DNA of 64,000 nucleotides. Source: a virus. Its lineage: Duplodnaviria > Caudoviricetes. The notes beneath the pieces were generated by a model. The model worked only from the letters and a program-made list of their open reading frames with translations, did no database searches and was not told the origin of the DNA. Below are positions 4,574 to 61,229 of the stretch, one piece after another (within the stretch, counting starts at the first letter, position 1; each line of letters opens with the position of its first letter). Made by a program: the position numbers and the translations under genes. The stretch spans positions 160,001-224,000 of the IMG/VR virus record IMGVR_UViG_3300021255_004000; one strand, given 5' to 3'.

Positions 4574-4589
4574 GTGTTAATATATCATT

Positions 4590-5368: not shown

Positions 5369-5373
5369 ACTAA

Positions 5374-6555
5374 TTGAATATGATTAGCAATGTCGATTAT
5401 TTGTTAAGCCTCGTTGGCAAGAACAATGCAGAGATACGAGATACTTGGGTTCTTACAGGTACAACTATCGTATCAAAGCAAACAAGAAGATATATAAAAG
5501 ACTCAATCTTTCAAGTTTCTTGCACTCCTGGCACTCCACTCAATGGAGCAATCCTTTACTGTAAGGCAGATTATTCCGTAGGCGATTTATGGCCTTTAAT
5601 TGACTGGGACTCTTATAGCGTACAAGATATTTCAGGACTCATTGGTTCATATCAAGGAGTTGAAACACCTTTCTTTCAAGTACTTTTGACAAAAGAACAA
5701 CTTGATGAAGTTGAAGATATTCCTGTGAATGAAAATCTTGAGCTGTACAGTGGTTCTCAGGAATGTGGCGGTGTAATCATTGATGATGAACAACTTGGCA
5801 TTATTCTTGGTGAATTAGGTGTGCCATTCCTTCGCATTGATGAACTTGAACTTACAGGAAATGCTATTCGTCAATATTGCATTAAGCCAGCAATGGACTA
5901 TTACTTTGGATATTTCCCAATCATAAAAGAAGAATCAGTTGGCAATATAAGTGCAGGCGGTTCATTCAAAAAAGAATTCCCAGAAGGAGCTTTTGCTTGT
6001 GTTCCTTATTATGTATTAGGCGCTGCAGGAAGTAACGCAGGTTACGGGGCAGGTGCCTTCTCATTGTACCGTGAACAAATGATTTACGGTGGAGCATCAG
6101 GAAGCAGTTTTGGCTCAGGCGTTTCATATCGAAAGTCTGTCCCAGGCTTCGTAGGACTTCACAACAGAGATGCTGCTTTACAAGCACTTGCAGCAAATCA
6201 AGGATATTTGAATTACTTCCGTCGCGAGCACGTGAAAACAATAAAAGAAAACGGCAAAAAGTACGCCACAGGATACTCAACAACTGGCGGAGCCGTATGT
6301 ATAAAATGGTTGTGTGCGTCATATGACTTTGACGACATCAAGTTTTCAATGAGAACAGATTTCCGCAATATTTGTAAAGCTTATGTTTTAAGAAACATTG
6401 GTATGTTGCGTTCAATGGTTAAAAGTGATCTCCCAGGTAACATTGACTATTCAATGTACACATCTCGTGCAGACAGTCTTGAACAGAAAGTTGCAGAGAA
6501 GTGGGAGAAGTGTGCAACTTCAATGGCATTAGCAGTAATGCGTGGTGGTTTATAA
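5374..6555 (+). CDS. Putative head-tail neck protein (T4 gp13-like); real start probably ATG 5380
   Basis: C-terminal AYVLRNIGMLRS..LPGNIDYS pattern resembles myovirus neck proteins; adjacent to terminase. Confidence 0.45.
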   Translation: MNMISNVDYLLSLVGKNNAEIRDTWVLTGTTIVSKQTRRYIKDSIFQVSCTPGTPLNGAILYCKADYSVGDLWPLIDWDSYSVQDISGLIGSYQGVETPFFQVLLTKEQLDEVEDIPVNENLELYSGSQECGGVIIDDEQLGIILGELGVPFLRIDELELTGNAIRQYCIKPAMDYYFGYFPIIKEESVGNISAGGSFKKEFPEGAFACVPYYVLGAAGSNAGYGAGAFSLYREQMIYGGASGSSFGSGVSYRKSVPGFVGLHNRDAALQALAANQGYLNYFRREHVKTIKENGKKYATGYSTTGGAVCIKWLCASYDFDDIKFSMRTDFRNICKAYVLRNIGMLRSMVKSDLPGNIDYSMYTSRADSLEQKVAEKWEKCATSMALAVMRGGL

Positions 6556-21087: not shown

Positions 21088-21343
21088 CTGCTGAGTTCAA
21101 TGAAATCATCGTACTCTTTTTAATTGCTTCAATAACATATTGTGTCAAAGTCATTTGAGCAGTTGTTGTGTCAATCATCAAGTCTGGATTTCCGTCAAGA
21201 AACACAAACCCAGTGAGATCAAGATCGCCTTTTGCTGAAACACAACTTGTCAAATCTGCTGTGAAGTTTGGAGTACCCCAAGAATCTCCTGGGTGATATC
21301 CAAACTGTTGTGTGCCATTCGGACAAAACTTATTCATCAGCAA
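21023..21343 (-). CDS. Hypothetical protein, PxxFxG-module family
   Basis: MISLNSAVAEYFLDKNPELFDGKELYI. Confidence 0.65.
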   Translation of the reverse strand: MLMNKFCPNGTQQFGYHPGDSWGTPNFTADLTSCVSAKGDLDLTGFVFLDGNPDLMIDTTTAQMTLTQYVIEAIKKSTMISLNSAVAEYFLDKNPELFDGKELYIE

Positions 21344-22394
21344 GTCCTTCGATATGAGGAATGATTTCGCCGCGCTTTACAATCTTTACTTTTGAACCGA
21401 TTTCAATTCCGTGCTTAATCAACCAATTTGCGTTTGAGCAAGATGCTCTCTTAACAGTTGTTCCACAAAGATCAACCGCTTCAACGATTGCAACTGGGTT
21501 GAAGTATTTTCCTGATTGAGACCATTCAATGTCAAGAACAGTTGTTATTGCAACATCAAGTTCAAACTTGATAGCGCAAGAGTTCTTAGGAGTTCTGTTC
21601 TTGAGGTCTTCATAGTCGATAACTTCAGGCTTTACAACCACTCCGTCAATATCATATTCAATGTTTTCACGATTGTTGTACTGAGAAGTACGGAAGGCGA
21701 AAGCTTCTGTCAAGTTCTTTACAACAGCGTGTTCTGGGATTTCAAATCCATTTCCTGAAAGGAATTCCAATTTCTGAACTTCAGTTTTGATTGTCTTTTC
21801 ACCAACTTCCTGCATATCATAAGCAACAAAGTTGAGATTGTCAAGTTCTGAACCGTCAAGATGTTTCATAATTCCTGCAGCAGCATTGCGGCAGTTCTTC
21901 ATCTTGTCTTTGTAGTTTTTGTTGAACATTGAGTGAGACATCAGGATTTCGCCGCGAATTGAACAATCCATTGGCAAGTTCAAAGTTGAATTAACACCTT
22001 TAACAAGCTTTGCATTTTCAGTGATATCATCACCTTCAAAGCCTGTGCCGCGTGTAACTGCCTGAACAAGTTTTCCGTTGCGGAACTTAAGTTCAATTCC
22101 TGCACCGTCCATCTTCTGTTCCATAACATACACACCAGGGTGTTTGCGGAACCATTCTTTGAAAGCAGATTCATCTTTACACTTTGCAAGTGTTCCTGTT
22201 ATCAAATCGTGTTTTGCTTTTGCAAAACCTTCAGTGTGATCGTCATAAGTTACTGTATCAACATAAGTTGGATCAAGAGTTTTCAGTTCATTGACAAGTT
22301 GGTCAAACTCCTTGTCTGACATAATAGGCTCAGCATTGCCGTATGCGATTGATGCTTCTTCGATCTTTGCTTTCAATTCATCAATTCTTGTCAT
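21330..22394 (-). CDS. ligA: NAD-dependent DNA ligase, N-terminal half (domain Ia, adenylation domain, OB fold)
   Basis: MSDKEFDQL, EQKMDG (KxDG), TRGTG..GDDIT, RGEI, RNAAAG, IDGVVVK, RGEIIP; stops right after the OB domain. Confidence 0.9.
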   Translation of the reverse strand: MTRIDELKAKIEEASIAYGNAEPIMSDKEFDQLVNELKTLDPTYVDTVTYDDHTEGFAKAKHDLITGTLAKCKDESAFKEWFRKHPGVYVMEQKMDGAGIELKFRNGKLVQAVTRGTGFEGDDITENAKLVKGVNSTLNLPMDCSIRGEILMSHSMFNKNYKDKMKNCRNAAAGIMKHLDGSELDNLNFVAYDMQEVGEKTIKTEVQKLEFLSGNGFEIPEHAVVKNLTEAFAFRTSQYNNRENIEYDIDGVVVKPEVIDYEDLKNRTPKNSCAIKFELDVAITTVLDIEWSQSGKYFNPVAIVEAVDLCGTTVKRASCSNANWLIKHGIEIGSKVKIVKRGEIIPHIEGLADE

Positions 22395-26058: not shown

Positions 26059-26189
26059 AAAAACTCCTTATTGAATATTAACTCCAAAGAAGTGACTCAG
26101 GATGCTCACAGATCCTTTCTGCAGCGTGTTTGATAGCAGCTTCCCAGTTATAAGTTTTGTTTTTGATTGCCTTTTTGATTGCGGCAACT

Positions 26190-27862
26190 TTAGTCGTCAT
26201 CTTCTTCATCTTCGTTATCTCCTACAGCCTGTTTAATCTGATCTTGAAGTTTTGATAATGCAGAAAGCAAAGCAAGTTTCTTTACCAGTTCATCTGCCTT
26301 GTCAGGAGATGCGCCTTCCATAACAAGTTTTGCGGCCATTGCGTGCATTGACATTGCTGCTTCAAAAGCCTTCCATTCACCATCAGTTTTTGGTCGAACT
26401 TCAGCAGGAAGTTTCCAAGCAGCCTTCTTGTTGATAATGCGGCGGGCGCGTTCAATATCCATTTCACGATATGCTTCGATTTCTTCTTTAAAGAAATCCC
26501 TCAACTTGAAACGAACGTTGTGATCTTTGTAGTCTTTGAACGAAAGAGCATTTGCCATCATTTCAGAAAACGCTTTTGCAACTTTTAAGTTTGTAAACTC
26601 AGCAATGTCTTGCTCAACACCATCATAAACCCACAAGTGGCCATTTACACCTGTCTGTTTGATAGTGACTTTCCAATGGCGGTTCCAACCTGAAGTATGA
26701 TCTTCAAAGTGGTAAACAATTACCACATAATCTTTCTCCAAAGGAAGTCCATAACGGTTATGCATTGCGTCAAATAACCAACCATCACCTATTGGCTTAG
26801 GTGTGTTTGAAAAAGGTCTACCCATTCTTGTGCTCCTTACTGTATGTGTTTAATGCGTCTGCAACAATTTGACAGATGTCGTCAAAGAACAATCCGTCAG
26901 CAAGCGCATCATAAATTGCATCTTTAAGATTTTTCTCCACTTCAGTTTTTGACATTCACCCACCTCTTAATCATAGTAATCTGAAACTTCTTCACCGTTC
27001 CAAAGTCTCATTGGCCCACACCAAGAACCTTTGTAATACCCAGGAATATAAAATCCGCCGTCTTCTGTAGGCTTTACCATAATTCTTTTTGGAATAAGAC
27101 AGTTGCAGTTGTTTGAAAGAACTACATAGTCTTCCCAGAAACTTTGATTGTTTGCTTTTGCAACCATCTTGGCTTTGTCATACTGATCTTTTGTTCCTTT
27201 AAGAAGATCAAAGCCGTACTTTTTATTGTAATCTTTATAAACTGCCTCAAGGCTTTTAAGTGCTTCTTCATCAGGAAGTTTGTATGAATGACCTGTTCCG
27301 CCGCCTTCGTGTTCAAAATGTGTTTGCTTTGACGGCATTTTGACTACAAGAACTGATTTCTTTGATGTCCCAACAATTTTGAAAAATGTTGAAGAATTAC
27401 ACCAATGCTGAACTAAAATTGTTCCAATGGGAATGTCTTCTGGTGACTTCAAAGACTTAATATCCATTTTCAAACTCCTTAGAATGAAGCGAGAACTTCA
27501 GCATTTTCCATTGCAAAGTTTGCATCTTCCATAGCACGAGCCTTTGCCCAAGCAATAGCAGCATCCTTTTCCTTTTTTGTAAGGATGTACTTTCCGTCAG
27601 CGTCAACCTCGTGAATGTAAACCTTGTGAACCATCTTTCGAGGATTGCGGCTGTATGACTGTGACCAACGAATTCTTTCGCGTTCTTCACGAGCCTTTTC
27701 GAGAAGTTCTTCTTTGTCAGTTGATGGTTTTGTTACATCAAAGAAACAAGGATTTTCACCTTTCAAAAGGGCCCAAGCTTTAATTGTAAGATTTGTAGCA
27801 ATATCTTCCCTTTTCCAAGCACCTTCAGAAAATACGCGGAAATATTTGATCTTGTTTGCCAT
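26190..27862 (-). other. Hypothetical early genes (26190-26825, 26967-27473, 27479-27862)
   Basis: AGGAG RBSs, downstream of the class I promoter at 27886-27924. Confidence 0.6.
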
Positions 27863-27987: not shown

Positions 27988-28033
27988 CAGGTTGACACTT
28001 TTTGTCAATCTGTCTAAATGTTAATATACTTTT

Positions 28034-35048: not shown

Positions 35049-35110
35049 AATTAGTTTTGCACGCTGAAAAAGATTCAGATGAAAAAATCACAAAATTTTT
35101 TTAACTAATT
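35049..35110. promoter_or_regulatory. Back-to-back class III (ACTAATT, probably late) motifs for the sheath and holin-like genes
   Basis: ACTAATT at 35049-35055 (-) and 35104-35110 (+). Confidence 0.6.
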
Positions 35111-42832: not shown

Positions 42833-42847
42833 AATTGTATATTAACC

Positions 42848-45922: not shown

Positions 45923-46750
45923 TTAAGCCTCCATCATTTTGTAAAACTCTTCATATGTAATTGTTGCAATTCCGAGTTTCTCAGCCTTAACCATTTTTGC
46001 TGTTCCTGTTTCTGATGATACGAGGTATGAAAGTCCTTTCTTTACGCTTTCAACAGTTCCGCCAAGTTCAGCAACTTTTTCCTCGAGAAGTTTTCTTTTC
46101 TCTTCAGGCTTGAAGTCGTTTGAACCTGTGAAGCAGAATGAAAGCCCAGAAAACTTTCCACCTTCAACAACTTTTGCTTTATCTTCGATTGAAACAAGTT
46201 TGTAGCATTTTTCAATGTCTTCTTTGTTTTCAGCAATAAGGCTGACAAGTTCTTTTGCAGAGTTTTCAGTCCAGCCGTAAACATTTGCAATTTCAGGAAC
46301 AATGTTTAAGCCGTTTACAAGTTTCTGAAGATCAAAGCCTGCATCAACCAAAGACTGAATTGATCTTCGTCCATAACCATCAAGGTCAAATGATGCAAGG
46401 AAGTCAGCAGTTTTGAAAGGCTCTGCCATACGCTTTGCAAAGTTGCGGCGAATCTTTTCTGCATTTTTACCGCAAACATTGTCCAAAGAAGGACTGTTCA
46501 ATTTTGTAAGGAATTCATAGTTTGATGTGATGTTTTCTGCTTCGACAAAATCCTTAATGATAGCAGGTCCGATCTCAAGGACATTCCAAATGTTTGTCAA
46601 TTTTTGGATTTTGTGAAGTACTTTCTGTTCACAGGTAGGATTCGGGCAAAAAAGAACACCCGATTCATTTATTTCGAGAGCTGTCCCGCATACAGGACAG
46701 ATTGTAGGCATATTCCATTTATGTGATTTTGCGTATTCTGCGGCGTTCAT
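45923..46750 (-). CDS. ligA: NAD-dependent DNA ligase, C-terminal half (Zn finger, HhH, BRCT)
   Basis: PTICPVCG...LFCPNPTC Zn finger; EIGP, GYGR, GWTE HhH-like turns; GLSFCFTG..GG.V..SV..LSYLV...K..KAEKLGI BRCT. Confidence 0.88.
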   Translation of the reverse strand: MNAAEYAKSHKWNMPTICPVCGTALEINESGVLFCPNPTCEQKVLHKIQKLTNIWNVLEIGPAIIKDFVEAENITSNYEFLTKLNSPSLDNVCGKNAEKIRRNFAKRMAEPFKTADFLASFDLDGYGRRSIQSLVDAGFDLQKLVNGLNIVPEIANVYGWTENSAKELVSLIAENKEDIEKCYKLVSIEDKAKVVEGGKFSGLSFCFTGSNDFKPEEKRKLLEEKVAELGGTVESVKKGLSYLVSSETGTAKMVKAEKLGIATITYEEFYKMMEA

Positions 46751-48619: not shown

Positions 48620-48634
48620 AATGTAATTAGTAAA

Positions 48635-49886: not shown

Positions 49887-50795
49887 TTAATTTGGCTTCC
49901 ACATAGGATTTTTATTTCTCATTCTTTGCTGTTGTTTGTAACTCATTTTTGTTTTAACAGGCTTTTGTTCTTCCTCATCTGCATCAAGCAATGACTGCAT
50001 TCTTGTCATAGCATCTTCATCACTCATATCCATTGTGATCATGCCTTTTGCTTTATTGCTTAACACTGGCTGAATATATGCGATTGCATCATTTACTGGT
50101 TCCATTGCAAACTCAGTAAACAGCTGAGGCCTATAAGGAATGCGGCTTTCACTGTCACCGTCTTTTATCTCTGGAATGTCTTCACCTTCAAAGAAATCAG
50201 GCCAAGCATCAAGAATTAAACTTATATCTTTTTCATTAAAATCTTCAACTTTAACATCTTGTTCTTTTAAGTAATCTTTAAACTCTTTTGCAGTACCACA
50301 CTTTTTAATAAAGTCTGAGAGTGAAATTGTGTTGAAAAGATCTGCTTTAATTAAAGAAATTGTAGAAATTCCACCGTGTGAAAATTGCCCATCATCTTCA
50401 TCAATCTTCTCATCAAAAAGCAGTCTGGCGTGTTCTTCATTTGCAGCCAATGCCTTCCTATAAGGCGTTACTTTTTTGCCGTTTAGATTTGTTCCCCACT
50501 TCTTTCCAAGTTCAACAGCTTTGTTCTGTGCTTCTTCTGCAGGAGTAAGTTTATACTTTTCAGCAAGTTCTTTTTTGATTTTGTCAAAGTCTGGAAAGTC
50601 AAACTGGATTGTCCAATCAGAGTGATCATCAGCTTCTGTAAGTTTACCACCAAGCAAACTTGCAACATCAGCAGAAACAACTTGTCGAGAAACGCCTCCT
50701 CGATCTATACTTTTTGACATATCTGGTATTTGTGACCAAGCGTCAAGAAAGTCTTTACTTCTTTTCACCACTATACTTTCATTGAATCTTTGCAT
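49887..50795 (-). CDS. Hypothetical protein, PxxFxG-module family
   Basis: EKDISLILDAWPDFFEGEDI. Confidence 0.6.
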   Translation of the reverse strand: MQRFNESIVVKRSKDFLDAWSQIPDMSKSIDRGGVSRQVVSADVASLLGGKLTEADDHSDWTIQFDFPDFDKIKKELAEKYKLTPAEEAQNKAVELGKKWGTNLNGKKVTPYRKALAANEEHARLLFDEKIDEDDGQFSHGGISTISLIKADLFNTISLSDFIKKCGTAKEFKDYLKEQDVKVEDFNEKDISLILDAWPDFFEGEDIPEIKDGDSESRIPYRPQLFTEFAMEPVNDAIAYIQPVLSNKAKGMITMDMSDEDAMTRMQSLLDADEEEQKPVKTKMSYKQQQRMRNKNPMWKPN

Positions 50796-50798
50796 TCG

Positions 50799-51206
50799 TT
50801 ACTCCATAAATTGTTCCATCTGTAAACCACCAGCCAAATATCCTGTAACTCTTTTTGGTAAACCTGTCGTCATAACTGGAATCATTGTACCATAAGTAAC
50901 AGATCCTTGTACATTAGTTTGAATTGCACCAGTTTTCTTTAATTCATATTTATAATACTCATCATAAGAGTCACAGTACTCAACTTCTTTATTTTCAAAA
51001 TATGTTGGCAGATAATCTATGATTTGTTCAGCATCTTCATAAGTAACAATAATTTTGCCATCTTTTGTCTGTCCCATAGTTGCATCAAGATATGCTTTCA
51101 AACTGTCTGTTGTGCCAAATGACATACTGCGAAACTTGATTGGGCCTGTGTTTCCAAATGAAGGAACAGGAGATGCTATTCTTCTTATACTTGACAATAT
51201 TCCCAT
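50799..51206 (-). CDS. Hypothetical protein, PxxFxG-module family
   Basis: KIIVTYEDAEQIIDYLPTYFENKEVEY. Confidence 0.6.
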   Translation of the reverse strand: MGILSSIRRIASPVPSFGNTGPIKFRSMSFGTTDSLKAYLDATMGQTKDGKIIVTYEDAEQIIDYLPTYFENKEVEYCDSYDEYYKYELKKTGAIQTNVQGSVTYGTMIPVMTTGLPKRVTGYLAGGLQMEQFME

Positions 51207-51267
51207 AATTGAATATTAACAAAAAAGGCGAGCCGAAGCCCGCCAGTAGAGTCCGAGACCCTAGGTT

Positions 51268-52098
51268 TTATTTTGCATCTTCTTTTTCTTCTGAAGCCAT
51301 CAAAGTTTTTTCAACTTCACGAATGCGGTTGCGTTCTGCAATATCTGCTTTAACTCGCTTTTCAACATTATCTGTTTCTTTTATGCCAAACTCTTCTTTA
51401 AGAGTTTTTGCTGCTTCAAGCTGTTCGTCTGTAAATGCTTTATCACAAACAACCACAACAGATTTCAAATAAAAGATGGAATATTCACTGTAAGTACTGT
51501 AACCTGAAGGAGCATTTGTTTTAATGCGGAAGCCTCTTAAATATAAACCGTCCGCATCTGCACCGAGTACAGGAGATGTTACAATCTCGCGTTTCTTATA
51601 ATCTTTTTCATACAATGGATTTTCAAAAGTTAGTGTGAACTCTTCCATTGACTTAATTGCATTAAAGTCCTGCGGCATTTTAATCGACTTAATAGGACCC
51701 ATAGGCGATGTTGAGTAAAGTAATATAATTTCATCGTATGGACGATTAGTTGTTGCAGTAACTTTAATTGATTTTATTGCACCAGCATTCTGAATAACAC
51801 CTGCGCCATCAACGCCTTCATTAAGGAACGAAGGATATGCAGTCAAAATATCATAGGATGTTGAAATATCCTTAGGTACTTTTGTTGCAAGGAAACGCAA
51901 GCCTTTTTCATTTGGCTCAAGAATTGTCAACTCTGACTTGTTAAAGTAGCCACTTGTTGAGCTAATTTCAAAGTTGCTTACATAATCATAACCATCAACA
52001 TCAGCTTTTGCTGCTGAGCTGAACAACACCTGTTCTTGTGCGCAAAGCAATATACAAGTTGCAAACATTACACACAAGAATGACAAAAATCTTTTCAC
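51268..52098 (-). CDS. flaA: Spirochete flagellar filament outer-layer (sheath) protein FlaA homolog
   Basis: Sec signal peptide; GAGVIQNAGAIKSIKV, LTFENPLY....KREI..SPV, YLKSVVVVCDKA and EEFGI match, in order, the Treponema FlaA blocks G.GVVKNVGTIKSIAV, LVWNNPSY..DVRSREV..YPV, YFKDVKIIYDKA and EDLWGI (recalled from memory). Confidence 0.75.
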   Translation of the reverse strand: MKRFLSFLCVMFATCILLCAQEQVLFSSAAKADVDGYDYVSNFEISSTSGYFNKSELTILEPNEKGLRFLATKVPKDISTSYDILTAYPSFLNEGVDGAGVIQNAGAIKSIKVTATTNRPYDEIILLYSTSPMGPIKSIKMPQDFNAIKSMEEFTLTFENPLYEKDYKKREIVTSPVLGADADGLYLRGFRIKTNAPSGYSTYSEYSIFYLKSVVVVCDKAFTDEQLEAAKTLKEEFGIKETDNVEKRVKADIAERNRIREVEKTLMASEEKEDAK

Positions 52099-52726
52099 TG
52101 TCGTACTCCTATGTACACATCAAAAACATCATCAGCGCAGTCATTCTTCAAAGAAATAAGCCATACTTCTTTGAAGCCGCCAATGTTTTTATCGTTCAAT
52201 TTGTTGATGAATGACAATAAATCAACCAAGTATTTATTCCATTCACCACTTCCATTCTTTCCACCATAAAGATGGACAACCAAATGAGTTCCTTCTTTGA
52301 CTTTTGCAACAAAGTCAAGTTTTAAGTTGGACCATTCACATCCTTCCAATGATCTTGTAACTCTTGTTACTATATCACCATTAGGAATATCTATCCAAGT
52401 CTCGCCAAATTCGTTAGTTATTTTATCTTCCAATTTTCTGTCCTGTGTAATTGAATAAAGCAGAAATCATCTGTTTCTGCAACCAAATGATCAGTTGGCT
52501 CAAGATATCCAATCTGAGTATATGCTGATGAATTGACTGCATCTTTCAATGTCTTTTCTGTGTAAGCAAGATCATTGTCAGCAGTATAATTTCCGTAAAG
52601 TTCTTTTACCAAAGTTTCTTTTGGATTCTTGTCGTCAGGACTTACAGCCGCAACAAGATCCGCTGCTACAGAGTTGTTGATAAAAAACCTAACCTTACAA
52701 AGAATAAGTCCTTTCTTCATAATCAA
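52095..52726 (-). other. Two small hypothetical genes between flaB and flaA (52095-52433, 52418-52726)
   Basis: Overlapping packing into flaA; GTTAATAT at 52739-52746. Confidence 0.6.
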
Positions 52727-52746
52727 CCTCCATAAGTTATATTAAC

Positions 52747-53598
52747 TTATTTAAGAAGCGCAAGTACTGTTGATGACTGACTGTTTGCATTTGCCAACAT
52801 TGCAGTTGACGCCTGCTGAAGAATTGCGTTCTTAGTATAATCAACCATTGCTGTTGCCATATCTTCATCACGGATAACGCTTTCTGAAGATGTAAGGTTT
52901 TCAGCAGCAACATCAATACCTTTCTGTGTAAGTTCCATTCTGTTCTGAACTGCACCAAGATCAGCACGCTGCTTGTTTACAACTTTCAATGCTTCGTCGA
53001 CTGTTGCGATAGTTGAGTTTGCTTCATCAGCAGATGCGATAGAAATTGTGTTACCTGCTTCTCCCTGGATATCTTTCAAACCAAGTGCAGCAGCTGTTGC
53101 AGATTCGATGTTGATGCTAATACGCTGGTCAGCATTTGCGCCAATCTGGAATGTCATTTCAGTTCCTGCTTCTTTTCCAAAGCGGCCTGTCAACATATTC
53201 ATACCATTGAACTGTGCAGAACTTGCAATGCGGTCAACTTCTGAAACAAGCTGAGAAACTTCAACCTGAATCTGCATACGGTCTTCATCACTGTAAAGTC
53301 CATTGCTTGACTGAACAGCAAGTTCACGAATACGCTGCAAGATGTCAGAAGTTTCCTGAAGGTAACCTTCTGTTGTCTGAATGAAGCTTACGCCGTTTGA
53401 AACATTTTTTGATGCCTGATTAAGACCACGAATCTGTGAACGCATCTTTTCAGAGATTGCAAGGCCGGCAGCATCGTCACCAGCACGATTGATTTTCTCT
53501 CCACTTGAGAGCTTTTCCATTGAGCTTTTCAATGCAGCAGTGTTAAGTCCTTCCTGTCTTGCTGCAAATATTGAACTCATATTATGATTTATCACCAT
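52747..53598 (-). CDS. flaB: Flagellin, Treponema-type periplasmic flagellar core protein
   Basis: [77 protein letters not shown]; 283 aa. Confidence 0.95.
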
Positions 53599-53658
53599 AT
53601 TGTAAGCCCCTCCTATAGGCTACATAAGGTGGCTTCCTTGCCACCTTATTATATTAAC
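53599..53658 (-). promoter_or_regulatory. flaB leader: GTTAATAT motif plus two GGA-loop hairpins (candidate CsrA sites)
   Basis: ATAAGGTGGC-AAGGAA-GCCACCTTAT then TGTAGCC-TATAGGAGG-GGCTTACA containing the SD. Confidence 0.6.
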
Positions 53659-53927: not shown

Positions 53928-54004
53928 TTAAATCCTCTTATAAATTAGTTTTGAAATCATTAAAGGCTGCCTTTAAGCAGCCAATAATCAACAAGGAATA
54001 AGCT

Positions 54005-57408: not shown

Positions 57409-58488
57409 ATGTGGCAATTCAGGCCACGAGGAGTTAAAGTGTTAACGATAGACAATTCACAAGAATTGACTGTTCACGACTTTATTAAGAATAAAGAACA
57501 TCAACCTTTCAAAGGTTGGCGAACAGTTGCAAAAACCGAAAACTTCGGTCTTATCTTTGGTTGTACTGCTCCAACATTTGCTGGAATGTTGAAACAGGCA
57601 AACTTCACTGAAGCTGAATGTGATGAGTTCATACAGCTTACAAATAACACACAGGCATATAACGCTGCACTTGCAAACAATATGGGCAGTAAGCATCCTA
57701 TGAAAACTGCTGATGTAAAGTTTATAGTTGTTGCAGATGCAATGCGTACATCATTCTTTGAAACATATCAAGGCCTTATGGGTCGTATCAAGCGAGAGCA
57801 GGCTTTTGCTCTCGCGCACGGTTATGTTCGTTCTTGGCACGGACCTGTAAGACATCTTGCTGAATTAAGATATTTATCAGTTTCACCTAAAGGTGAATTG
57901 CAGGGAGCAGACCGCTCTCTTTATTCTAAAATGTTTTCCCATCTTTTGAACAACGCGTGTAACTCAACAATTCAGACAATGGAATCCCGCATCGCTTTTT
58001 CAACTTGGGTAAACATTGCAAAGTATCTTGCTCTTTGGGGACTTAAATCATATTGTTGGAACAACATCCACGACTCTCTTGACTTTTACATTTACAAGCC
58101 TGAACTTGAGTTGGTTGTTGCATTAGCTAATGCTTGTGCTGCTTGGGACCGTGAACCTGTAAAAGGCATTCATATGTCATTTGATGCAGAGATTTCTGAT
58201 CTTCAAGATTATGAACATCGTTGTGCAACATATTACAAAGCAGGTGTTGGTGTTGATGTTTTGCCTATTGAAGAAGCGATTGAACATTATAACAAAAAGA
58301 ATGGAACAAACCTTAAGTGGTATGGTTGTGATTGGGAATATGACAAGTATGCTTCAAATCGACTTTCAATGTATGAGAAGTATTGTCAGTTAAACGGTAA
58401 AGAAAATGTTGATGAATGGCTTGAACGATGGGGCGGTCCTGTAATCAATCAGCCTGCAATGGCTACTAGGAGAGTTGTAAATGGCTAA
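57409..58488 (+). CDS. polA: Family A DNA polymerase, C-terminal fragment (motifs B and C); likely start GTG 57439
   Basis: RTVAKTENFGLIFG (motif B), GYVRSWHGPVRHL, ACNSTIQ, NIHDSL (motif C); GAGGAG RBS before the GTG. Confidence 0.85.
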   Translation: MWQFRPRGVKVLTIDNSQELTVHDFIKNKEHQPFKGWRTVAKTENFGLIFGCTAPTFAGMLKQANFTEAECDEFIQLTNNTQAYNAALANNMGSKHPMKTADVKFIVVADAMRTSFFETYQGLMGRIKREQAFALAHGYVRSWHGPVRHLAELRYLSVSPKGELQGADRSLYSKMFSHLLNNACNSTIQTMESRIAFSTWVNIAKYLALWGLKSYCWNNIHDSLDFYIYKPELELVVALANACAAWDREPVKGIHMSFDAEISDLQDYEHRCATYYKAGVGVDVLPIEEAIEHYNKKNGTNLKWYGCDWEYDKYASNRLSMYEKYCQLNGKENVDEWLERWGGPVINQPAMATRRVVNG

Positions 58489-59213: not shown

Positions 59214-61229
59214 ATGCCGTTTATGTTCGGGGGCATCCGTGAAAATGCCAAAGCAAAAGACTTGAAAAAAGCTGAGGATATGATTGATGTTATCGTTTGT
59301 GATCATCAGTCTGATGTAGGTGATTATTACATCTTCTTGCTTGATAAACAACCTACTGATGCAATTAAGCAGCTTATATTAAATCGTATCCGTGATGAAG
59401 GATACACAAACTATATGGTACTTAACGCTGTTGAGTGTAAGTATCATAAAGAAGATTTGAAAGGTGAAGGTCTTACTGACTTTATGGTAAAGCACCGTTC
59501 AACTTGGCGTTCATACTTATATGATTACGAAGGCAAACACTGTAAAGCGATTATGTGTTTTGGTCCTGCGATGTATTCAATAAATGCTTCATCTGACATT
59601 ATGACAGGTGACTTTTATGATACGAAGATGTTGCACCCATACTATTATATGGGTCACGAAATCTTTAAGTATGATACATTTGTTTTCCCAGTTGATGGGA
59701 TTGATGACCTTTACCCAGTTTTGAAAAACTCAAGTAACACTGTCAACTTCAAGACAAGATTCTTCTTCGAACAGTTGAAGAATATGAAGAAAGAAAAATA
59801 TTCTTGGCAGCCCAACTTGAATGAACCGAAGTATGTTGTAATCAACAGTAAAGAAGAAGCTGATGATATGTTCAGACGCAATATGAATATGAAGTTGGTT
59901 GCATTCGATACTGAAACAAACGGTTTGAAGTTTTATAAAAACTACATTCACTGTCTTACAATCTGTTGGGACGGCATCACAGGTTATTATGTACCTTGGA
60001 AGTTTGTTGACCCAGTTCTCTTTGAAGAAAATGTAATGTCGTGTGAACACCGTACTGGTGCTAACCCAAAGTTCGACTTGAAGTTCTTTTGGCAACACGG
60101 TGTATCAAGACGCGTAAATGTTACAGATGCAACGGACCGACTTGCGCATTGTATTACATCTGAGGTAAAGTCAGGTTTGAAGCCGCTTGCATATCGTTAC
60201 ACTCCATTTGGTGGTTATGACATCAAACTTGACAAGTGGAAGAAAGAAACAAAGTGTGATGACTATACAAAGATACCAACAGAGATTTTGTCAAAGTATG
60301 CAACGATGGATGCGATTGCAACTTGGCGTATTCAAGTTGAACTTTGGTTGCTTGTTGATGAAATCGACAGAAACTTTCCAAATGAAAAATATCCTGAGTG
60401 GACAATTCGTCGTTGGTATGAAACACAATGTATGGAAATCTACAAGGAAATCTGTAATGTTGAATGGCGCGGTATTTATGTAAATGTTGAACTTATGAAT
60501 AAGTATCGTGAAGAACTTACAAAAGACCTTGATGAAAAAGAAGCAGAACTTCGTAAGATATGGGGTGTAGGTCCTGACTTCAACATTGGCTCAACAACTG
60601 AAGTTGGAAAGTTGTTTGAAAGATTGGGATGGGAATGTTTCGGCCGAAATGATGCTGGAGTTTATTTGACAAATGATGAAGCGATGGGAGCTTGGATAAG
60701 ACAGAATATGCCAGGCGCTGCATTGCTTGCAGAATGGCGTACTGAAAGAACATCAAGAAACTCATTCTTAGGTATCATTGATGAAAAAGGACAGGAAACA
60801 GGTTGGTTGCAATATATTTATCACGATGAGAAAGATGGCAATCCTGAAGAAGGTGGTTCATATCGAGTTCAGCAGTCTTATCTTGTAATGGGAACGGAAA
60901 CTTATCGTTTCATCGGTAAAGATCCAAACTTCCAAAACATTCCTACACGCAACAAGTATGCAGGATATGTAAAGAAATGTATTGATACACCACCTGCTGA
61001 TTTGTACACAATCGTAGGTGACAGCGGAAAAGAGTACAACCTTGCTGAGTTTGAACTTGTTTACACAAACGAGGGTTATAAAACAGCAAAGGAATGTTTC
61101 TCAAATATGCGTCGTTTGAAGTTTATTGAAAATGACCCAGAACATCCTGCAGTGTTAAGATGCGGTTTTGACAAACAAGAAGATGGTTCTTTCAACACTC
61201 CAGATCCTAAAGTTTGGTTTGGAGCATAA
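59214..61229 (+). CDS. polA: Family A DNA polymerase, N-terminal fragment (UDG-like domain, 3'-5' exonuclease, thumb, start of palm)
   Basis: VAFDTETNG (ExoI), NPKFDL (ExoII), YATMDA (ExoIII), FNIGS, TETYRF..DPNFQNIP; no canonical motif A. Confidence 0.88.
   Translation: MPFMFGGIRENAKAKDLKKAEDMIDVIVCDHQSDVGDYYIFLLDKQPTDAIKQLILNRIRDEGYTNYMVLNAVECKYHKEDLKGEGLTDFMVKHRSTWRSYLYDYEGKHCKAIMCFGPAMYSINASSDIMTGDFYDTKMLHPYYYMGHEIFKYDTFVFPVDGIDDLYPVLKNSSNTVNFKTRFFFEQLKNMKKEKYSWQPNLNEPKYVVINSKEEADDMFRRNMNMKLVAFDTETNGLKFYKNYIHCLTICWDGITGYYVPWKFVDPVLFEENVMSCEHRTGANPKFDLKFFWQHGVSRRVNVTDATDRLAHCITSEVKSGLKPLAYRYTPFGGYDIKLDKWKKETKCDDYTKIPTEILSKYATMDAIATWRIQVELWLLVDEIDRNFPNEKYPEWTIRRWYETQCMEIYKEICNVEWRGIYVNVELMNKYREELTKDLDEKEAELRKIWGVGPDFNIGSTTEVGKLFERLGWECFGRNDAGVYLTNDEAMGAWIRQNMPGAALLAEWRTERTSRNSFLGIIDEKGQETGWLQYIYHDEKDGNPEEGGSYRVQQSYLVMGTETYRFIGKDPNFQNIPTRNKYAGYVKKCIDTPPADLYTIVGDSGKEYNLAEFELVYTNEGYKTAKECFSNMRRLKFIENDPEHPAVLRCGFDKQEDGSFNTPDPKVWFGA

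Follow-up and report, generated by a model that had tools for sequence, protein, structure and literature searches.

Cyanophages with auxiliary genes of the psbA type carry the most heavily consumed structural subunit of their host, and the host machine keeps running once the host's own expression has failed. The nearest described system in which a phage brings a flagellin is FRphi, a temperate siphovirus of Enterobacter that encodes its own flagellin, FliC-P, together with an RNA-guided TldR silencing host fliC (PMC13418256, bioRxiv 2023.11.30.569447). The virus DNA analysed here is a stretch of 64,000 nucleotides (nt), hereafter the window, comprising positions 160,001 to 224,000 of IMG/VR record IMGVR_UViG_3300021255_004000. 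It contains a four-gene cassette on the minus strand, from 53658 to 51221, with the order flaB, a 100-amino-acid (aa) open reading frame (ORF), a 112-aa ORF and flaA. The first gene encodes a spirochete core flagellin and the last a reduced variant of the spirochete sheath protein. A first-pass annotation of the window had regarded such a pair in a phage as undescribed, and full-text literature searches turned up no account of a phage carrying spirochete FlaB or FlaA; flagella and Treponema both go unmentioned in two recent surveys of gut jumbo phages.

The cassette resembles FRphi in that a phage-borne flagellin isoform would be expected to replace or join that of the host in the filament, and CsrA-type leader control of flagellin also appears in the work on FRphi. 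FRphi is concerned with external flagella, whereas the flagella at issue here are periplasmic and the phages are about 300 kb long, with terminal repeats. They also supply a sheath protein, and no TnpB/TldR-type domain was found in the complete relative G001. Searches for the TnpB zinc ribbon (PF07282) gave no matches in the phage relatives G001, G002 and G003, and no transposase-like PHROG match was found among the large ORFs of the window. Spirochete flagella lie inside the cell envelope, beyond the usual interactions between phages and flagella. Because the filament is hidden under the outer membrane, the benefits shown for FRphi (immune evasion, receptor change) are unlikely here. The psbA-type genes follow the same logic of supply, with the difference that the structure concerned here is a motility organelle and not a photosystem.

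The periplasmic filament of T. denticola consists of a core of FlaB1-3 and a sheath of FlaA (PMC13439194; PDB 9pim, 9pil, 10pl). The phage flagellin matches both Flagellin_N (PF00669, 6e-42, residues 3-139) and Flagellin_C (PF00700, 1e-21, residues 198-282) in Pfam. Treponema FlaB chains from the Protein Data Bank (PDB) match it over its whole length, with E-values from 6e-107 to 2e-101, and it has no outer D2/D3 domains. Both results agree with the earlier description of a full-length flagellin of 283 aa with Treponema-type motifs. Compared with FlaB from Treponema of the gut and rumen, the protein has 64-72% identity, and of the 147 columns with at least 95% conservation among 129 Treponema FlaB sequences it retains 136. 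The glycosylated residues S115 and T137 are found in all 23 phage copies and S126 in 22 of them, and the equivalent of D162, which contacts FlaA, is also present in 23 of 23. These four positions are thus shared with the T. denticola filament. At the T171 equivalent there is a serine, and conservation is lost at the S152 equivalent, as it is in FlaB3. The conserved termini suggest that phage FlaB would be exported by the flagellar type III system and would polymerise.

The surface loops of phage FlaB are unlike those of all host FlaB. A deletion of five residues (NVVTG) shortens loop 2 and removes the N147 region, and GTM is replaced by ASA or ESA. Sites that are invariant or nearly so in the host proteins are changed at S44A, G165, T166S, M167A, P190, Y217V, Q236T, R241V/I and G264S; Q270N is an additional change at a host-invariant position and is limited to the sub-lineage of the window. 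The missing NVVTG and these ten positions are what sets the phage protein apart from FlaB of the T. denticola filament. The departures from consensus at the C-terminus, already noticed in the first-pass annotation, are real and lineage-specific: position 241 has V or I in 19 of the 23 phage copies versus R in 114 of 129 Treponema FlaB, and position 270 is N in 7 of 23 versus Q in 129 of 129. The flagellin of L128, the closest phage by backbone genes, is long-branched and fast-evolving (L128:4168-5004, 64% identity). Its loop 2 is shortened further and N-terminal motifs that are invariant elsewhere have changed, yet the leader hairpins are kept.

The protein encoded downstream had been proposed to be a spirochete FlaA with a signal peptide, and both a family match and a fold match to FlaA were found. 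Its score against the Pfam model FlaA (PF04620) is 35.4 bits (cut-off 25). A profile built from an alignment of 39 phage FlaA-like proteins matches the T. denticola FlaA chain (9pim/10pl) with an E-value of 1.6e-13 over residues 97-271, including the C-terminal helix, and retrieves exactly one FlaA in each of five Treponema genomes. The AlphaFold2 (AF2) model, with a mean predicted local distance difference test (pLDDT) of 82.9, shows a jelly roll with long helices after it at the C-terminus. Foldseek ranks the sheath protein FlaA1 (9cyn, E 5.5e-6, TM 0.46/0.56) first among its matches, and the others are jelly rolls resembling carbohydrate-binding modules (CBM). The family has 158 relatives, on contigs up to about 290-310 kb.

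With 276 aa compared with 359-374 aa in FlaA of rumen Treponema, the phage protein is about 90 residues shorter, and the alignment with Treponema FlaA shows that three host insertions and the C-terminal tail are absent. It appears as a reduced variant of FlaA and not as an orthologue of the major FlaA of the host. Counterparts of FlaA1, FlaA2, FlaAP1 and FlaAP2 were not seen in the phage. What remains is the signal peptide, the first strand of the mature protein, a Ser-rich motif and the C-terminal helix. The signal peptide is predicted by inspection and alignment, from a charged start, a hydrophobic stretch, an Ala and an acidic mature end, and it aligns with the same feature in Treponema FlaA. 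S49 of the Ser-rich motif is invariant in the 39 phage proteins, and in the alignment this motif falls on the S86 region of FlaA from T. denticola, which touches FlaB1 (PMC13439194). This alignment is the single feature suggesting that phage FlaA may bind the FlaB core.

The reading preferred here, for which the chances are judged to be about even, is that host machinery exports both proteins, which then become part of the periplasmic flagellum, and that the filament is thereby kept up or remodelled. We know of no target other than the filament for a FlaA bound for the periplasm. The surface loops of FlaB have diverged from the host together with FlaA, which suggests a co-adapted, matched pair.

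A search for the pair in related phages found it in four or more diverged lineages. The window shares with L128 (293.5 kb) the order flaB, two ORFs and flaA. In G003 and L009 flaA follows directly after flaB; L009 is a contig of 306 kb mis-binned in a metagenome-assembled genome (MAG) of Clostridia. In L124, from a lineage with contigs up to 385 kb, flaA is located three genes downstream of flaB, and its product has no Pfam match and is FlaA-like by profile comparison (probability 99.96%). The fourth lineage is that of G001, in which both genes are also present. FlaB is the most conserved of the 33 proteins common to the window and G001, with 85% identity, while the others range from about 25 to 83% and most are below 60%.

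The same sequence differences might also mean that the phage subunits are dominant-negative, stiffening, uncoupling or stopping the filament so that the cell is immobilised or reshaped. The lineage-specific substitutions at sites invariant in 129 host FlaB would fit this, as would a shortened loop 2 without the N147 contact to FlaA and a FlaA without the three insertions and the tail. Moreover, the substitutions N147A and D162A in T. denticola FlaB1 impair motility (PMC13439194). However, one subunit would be enough for such a purpose, whereas a matched pair has been kept across deep phage lineages, and FlaB is 85% identical between phages whose other proteins are mostly 30-60% identical. This looks like selection for proper function, and poisoning of the filament is considered quite unlikely.

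A flagellin about 70% identical to host genes could have entered the record when host DNA was mis-joined to a phage contig, and binning errors do occur in MAGs, as with the contig filed under Clostridia. Alternatively, the genes might be recently captured passengers without a role. The cassette and its two junctions are tiled by contigs from independent metagenomes, one a study of sheep gut and one a further gut study, which excludes misassembly. Conserved synteny does so too, since the pair has shared neighbours in the large phage contigs L128, L003 and L009. These are an exonuclease and small ORFs on one side, and an ORF of 120-216 aa, an AAA ATPase and the C-terminal half of a ligase on the other. 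The GC content and promoter motif of the cassette are those of the phage. A recent passenger is opposed by the phage copies forming a clade of their own, none of them nested in host clades, and by purifying selection on both genes. An artefact or passenger is thus largely refuted and extremely improbable.

Maximum-likelihood trees place all flagellins from phage contexts in one group with support of 100/99, or 96 when the long-branched copy of L128 is included; for the unnamed database proteins in this group, the context was checked in some cases. The group is separate from the three FlaB paralogue clades found in every sampled Treponema genome, and the comparison with Treponema called for earlier thus gives the phage copies a place of their own. 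The simplest history suggested by the trees is one old capture of flaB followed by retention. The identity of FlaB departs from that of the phage backbone, with 85% to the distant G001 and 64% to the closer L128, which suggests that alleles have been exchanged or that rates are very uneven. Purifying selection on both genes is evident from the ratio of non-synonymous to synonymous substitution rates (dN/dS) between the window and L128, which is 0.12 for flaB and 0.18 for flaA with dS near saturation. An origin from the flaB2 paralogue driven by sigma28 was considered and is not supported: among the paralogues of five Treponema genomes the separate third one has the lowest similarity (64-66%), and it groups with the 286-aa clade and not with the phage group.

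A further flagellin, 60% identical and with a similar leader with GGA in the loop, is found in an IMG/VR provirus of 57.5 kb (L004, 9965-10843). It has a very long branch outside the jumbo-phage group, and no FlaA match was found in L004. This flagellin may be host DNA inside generously drawn provirus borders.

Regulatory signals upstream of flaB combine features of phage and host. The motif GTTAATAT is the most enriched upstream word of the window, with 22 copies versus 2.5 expected, and 15 of the 22 are located within 70 nt upstream of ORF starts. Its copy upstream of flaB is conserved in L128, L127 and L003. The motif lacks a conserved -35 partner, and other sites are found at, for example, 42839-42846, 28020-28027 and 4576-4583. 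In several genes it stands exactly six bases before the ATG, which would result in leaderless or near-leaderless mRNAs if it is a -10 element. A different word, ACTAAWT, is depleted in the window (12 copies versus 29 expected), and the remaining copies stand just upstream of gene starts (e.g. 53943-53949, 48625-48631, 35049-35055, 5369-5375), which suggests a second promoter class. The cassette uses the GTTAATAT class, which is common to replication and metabolism genes, while ACTAAWT heads other genes. In G001 the most upstream-enriched word is ACTAATTT.

According to the first-pass annotation, the two genes stand behind a phage motif rather than a sigma28 promoter. This holds for the window and does not hold for G001 and G003, which carry a sigma28-type -10 element before flaB. 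At the position of GTTAATAT, G001 has TAAAcTTT-N12-GCCGATAA, a near-consensus sigma28 promoter, and GCCGATAA occurs three times in the 300 kb of G001, once before flaB. In G003 the corresponding element is GTCGATAA. The sigma28-type elements in relatives and the host-type leader described below indicate that flaB was probably captured with host-type signals and has been moved under the phage promoter class in the lineage of the window.

The flaB leader is 52 nt long and folds into two hairpins in RNAfold. Hairpin 1 is kept in L003 and L128 with a compensatory change from G:C to A:T, and hairpin 2 is conserved in L003, L128 and L127. The two-hairpin leader has been retained in L128 and L127 although FlaB has diverged to 64% identity. 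Leaders of the 286-aa flaB genes of Treponema have the same architecture with an analogous TTCC-AAGGAGG-GGAA element. For T. denticola, CsrA sites near the Shine-Dalgarno sequences of flaB1 and flaB2 are reported, as is a fliW-csrA operon (PMC9481697). A partner switch between CsrA, FliW and flagellin is described for hag in B. subtilis and flaB in B. burgdorferi in work cited there (PMC9481697). The phage leader resembles these cases, with one GGA in a predicted hairpin loop and a second at the Shine-Dalgarno sequence. The difference is that neither CsrA nor FliW is found in the phage relatives G001-G003, so those of the host would be needed. From its predicted folding, the leader has the architecture of CsrA-controlled flagellin leaders, and flaB is apparently still wired partly like a host flagellin gene.

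The leader region is also an insertion hot spot. In a variant from a gut metagenome (run X5), 652 other bases replace 50 nt just upstream of the flaB start (53592-53643), and in L009 an HNH-like ORF of 241 aa is inserted directly upstream of flaB (L009:5286-6011).

Searches of G001-G003 for FliS, FliW, CsrA and Sigma70_r2 gave no matches. With these four absent in G001, the phage would supply subunits only and the host must do the rest. The leader might instead serve as a decoy, with its RNA titrating CsrA or the flagellin titrating FliW or FliS of the host, thereby re-setting the CsrA regulon and flagellin translation. Its two hairpins with GGA in the loop are like those of host flaB leaders, and changes are found at host-invariant positions near the C-terminus (R241V/I, Q236T, G264S). 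This part of flagellin is the chaperone-binding region in other bacteria. Control of flagellin by CsrA and FliW is, moreover, known in spirochetes and Bacillus (PMC9481697). On the other hand, a decoy leaves both a conserved, Sec-exported FlaA and the strong constraint on the glycosylation sites and polymerisation surfaces of FlaB unexplained. Titration is considered unlikely as the purpose of the cassette.

The neighbourhood of the cassette has the gene content of a large phage, including a split family A polymerase, SbcD and a 5'-3' exonuclease. Further genes in the window encode a two-piece NAD ligase, an AAA ATPase and NAD salvage, and many ORFs have no relatives. The NAD-dependent DNA ligase is encoded by two genes 23 kb apart, at 21330-22394 (-) and 45923-46750 (-), corresponding to an adenylation half and an OB/BRCT half, and relatives are split likewise. 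The family A DNA polymerase is also in pieces (57409-58488 and 59214-61229). The IMG/VR relative G001 consists of 300,878 bp with direct terminal repeats and an estimated CheckV completeness of 100%, and 33 of the 99 ORFs in the window are shared with it, mostly at 25-60% identity. Together with the conserved flanks, these shared ORFs bear out the earlier statement that both genes sit among phage genes. Related phage-like contigs of 293-385 kb were found in many samples. On this content the window is probably part of a large (jumbo-type) phage of gut or rumen Treponema. The GenBank phage collection gave only distant flagellin matches, none above 56% identity over its best piece, and nothing for FlaA. 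A scan of IMG/VR with a FlaA pattern found nothing, and FlaA of the relatives surfaced only on direct search of their records.

The window contains replication and accessory genes of the kinds usual in large phages, and PHROG scans of 25 large ORFs found such genes in G001 as well. The same scans of G001 found no capsid, portal or terminase and one weak tail match. A Terminase_6N search of G001-G003 gave no matches; a Gp23 search of the same three was silent too, as was its control, which makes it uninformative. The phage nature of the clade is based on IMG/VR classification, terminal repeats and gene content. With no virion proteins of the clade identified by annotation, the pair might be used outside the flagellum, as decoration or fibres of the virion or as a periplasmic structure for entry, phage exclusion or egress. 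The CBM-like jelly roll of FlaA also occurs in phage tail proteins. However, the cassette is located among replication genes behind the GTTAATAT class and not the ACTAAWT class, a Sec signal peptide would be unexpected on a virion protein, and FlaB has termini for export and assembly as well as a leader of host type. A non-flagellar use is considered very unlikely.

Features of the cassette are given in Table 1. The earlier account of two small ORFs between the flagellin gene and the FlaA-like gene is correct in both number and coordinates. The GTG start of flaA overlaps the stop of the 112-aa ORF, which implies translational coupling, and the 112-aa ORF overlaps the end of the 100-aa ORF.

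Table 1. Features in and around the flaB-flaA cassette (positions in the window)
Feature	Position	Strand	Basis
GTTAATAT promoter-like motif upstream of flaB	53651..53658	(-)	word enrichment; relatives; RNA contig ends
Leader hairpin 1, 10-bp stem, AAGGAA loop, CsrA-type site	53624..53649	(-)	RNAfold
Leader hairpin 2, Shine-Dalgarno AGGAGG (53609-53614) in loop	53602..53623	(-)	RNAfold
flaB, FlaB-type core flagellin, 283 aa, D0/D1 only	52747..53598	(-)	Pfam, PDB chains, tree
Second GTTAATAT, directly after flaB stop and before 100-aa ORF	52739..52746	(-)	motif scan
100-aa ORF, ATG at 52720	52418..52720	(-)	no Pfam or Atlas match
112-aa ORF, widespread small phage protein family	52095..52433	(-)	271 cluster representatives
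flaA-like, minimal FlaA sheath protein with predicted N-terminal signal peptide, 276 aa	51268..52098	(-)	Pfam, profile, fold
Intrinsic terminator closing the cassette	51221..51244	(-)	7-bp GC-rich stem then T tract
Third GTTAATAT, after the FlaA terminator, heading the next gene	51213..51220		motif scan

In two bovine studies, metatranscriptome contigs with 93-96% identity to the window extend over flaA, the two small ORFs and flaB. Their ends are at 51262/51286 on the terminator side and at 53636/53659 on the promoter side. The region 50700-51260 has no cover by RNA contigs in either study and is covered by DNA runs; such gaps in the flanks are a weak hint. Further sequencing runs (X11-X14, X17-X20) contain small shares of the stretch and do not form part of this evidence.

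The 100-aa ORF has no Pfam family and no Atlas match. It is confined to close relatives and a 55% identical copy in the same place in L128, with dN/dS of about 0.2. A 96-aa ORF downstream of flaB in G001 was considered as its counterpart and rejected, there being no detectable similarity. Complex prediction for phage FlaB and the 100-aa product gave a score of 0.00, which is no verdict and not evidence for or against an interaction. The family of the 112-aa ORF is widespread, with 271 cluster representatives at E<=0.001, mostly small viral proteins, and it sometimes forms the C-terminal domain of larger proteins. Its invariant residues are G58, N60, W65, Y68 and D102. The AF2 model (pLDDT 93) is an alpha/beta fold for which the PDB gave no informative match. 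The ORF and 36 relatives matched no Pfam family. The ORF at this position in L128 is 218 aa long.

If the pair is incorporated into the filament as preferred here, the cassette would be read from the phage's own GTTAATAT promoter class, and the flaB mRNA with its host-type leader would be translated under the control that CsrA and FliW of the host exert on flagellin homeostasis. FlaB would be chaperoned and then exported by the flagellar type III system of the host, and FlaA would be exported by Sec through its signal peptide. FlaB would be added at the growing tip of the periplasmic flagella and FlaA on the filament surface. In the infected cell the filament would be kept up and partly re-specified by the matched core-sheath pair. 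What the phage might gain is that motility and cell shape stay in the state it requires while a long infection lasts. Whether the outcome is sustained motility, a changed waveform or shape, or arrest is not readable from the sequence.

Several observations weigh against this scheme. Its steps of export and incorporation are deduced from sequence features. The ten changed positions that are invariant or nearly invariant in the host could mean that FlaB is altered or does not assemble. The short loop 2 is like that of the FlaB3 type, and FlaB3 of T. denticola forms an unsheathed distal filament (PMC13439194), which is odd for a phage that also brings a sheath protein. In G001 flaB and flaA are about 52 kb apart, so the pair need not act as one unit. 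Virion genes were not identified by hidden Markov model (HMM) scans of the relatives. Finally, contigs from RNA libraries cannot prove transcription or strand and are a supportive hint only.

Another ORF in the window might connect the phage to flagellar regulation. The 43-aa ORF at 26078-26209 (-) resembles the sigma28-binding C-terminal helix of FlgM. Its top Pfam match is FlgM, below threshold (E 0.011, 16.4 bits versus a cut-off of 25), and it is 42% identical over 26 residues to the sigma28-binding C-terminal part of FlgM from T. bryantii. A homologue in G001 with its own ribosome-binding site is 47% identical (253581-253712; L101:13581-13712). Profile comparison with FlgM in hhalign gave a probability of 48%, and a search of G001-G003 with the Pfam model of FlgM gave no matches. 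The ORF is a possible, unproven anti-sigma28 factor or FlgM mimic of the phage; a true mimic would tie the phage to the sigma28 circuit of the host. The peptide might then silence or redirect the host's own late flagellar genes via sigma28. It is a tentative and rather unlikely proposition that the clade of Treponema phages of about 300 kb reprogrammes the periplasmic flagellum, with co-evolved FlaB and FlaA under the CsrA/FliW checkpoint and perhaps a FlgM-like peptide acting on sigma28. Such a virus, if the proposition is true, would be the first to control how spirochetes move and what shape they have, and would parallel TldR-based remodelling in function, with protein mimicry in place of RNA guidance.

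To our knowledge, lytic Treponema phages are almost unknown. The pair provides a firm marker of a Treponema host for a large group of uncultured jumbo phages from gut and rumen. Phage FlaB and FlaA are also natural, minimal and diverged probes of sheath-core coupling, glycosylation and CsrA/FliW control. The conservation of core plus sheath implies that the composition or supply of the filament matters to the virus, and the pair opens a testable route to the movement and shape of infected spirochetes.

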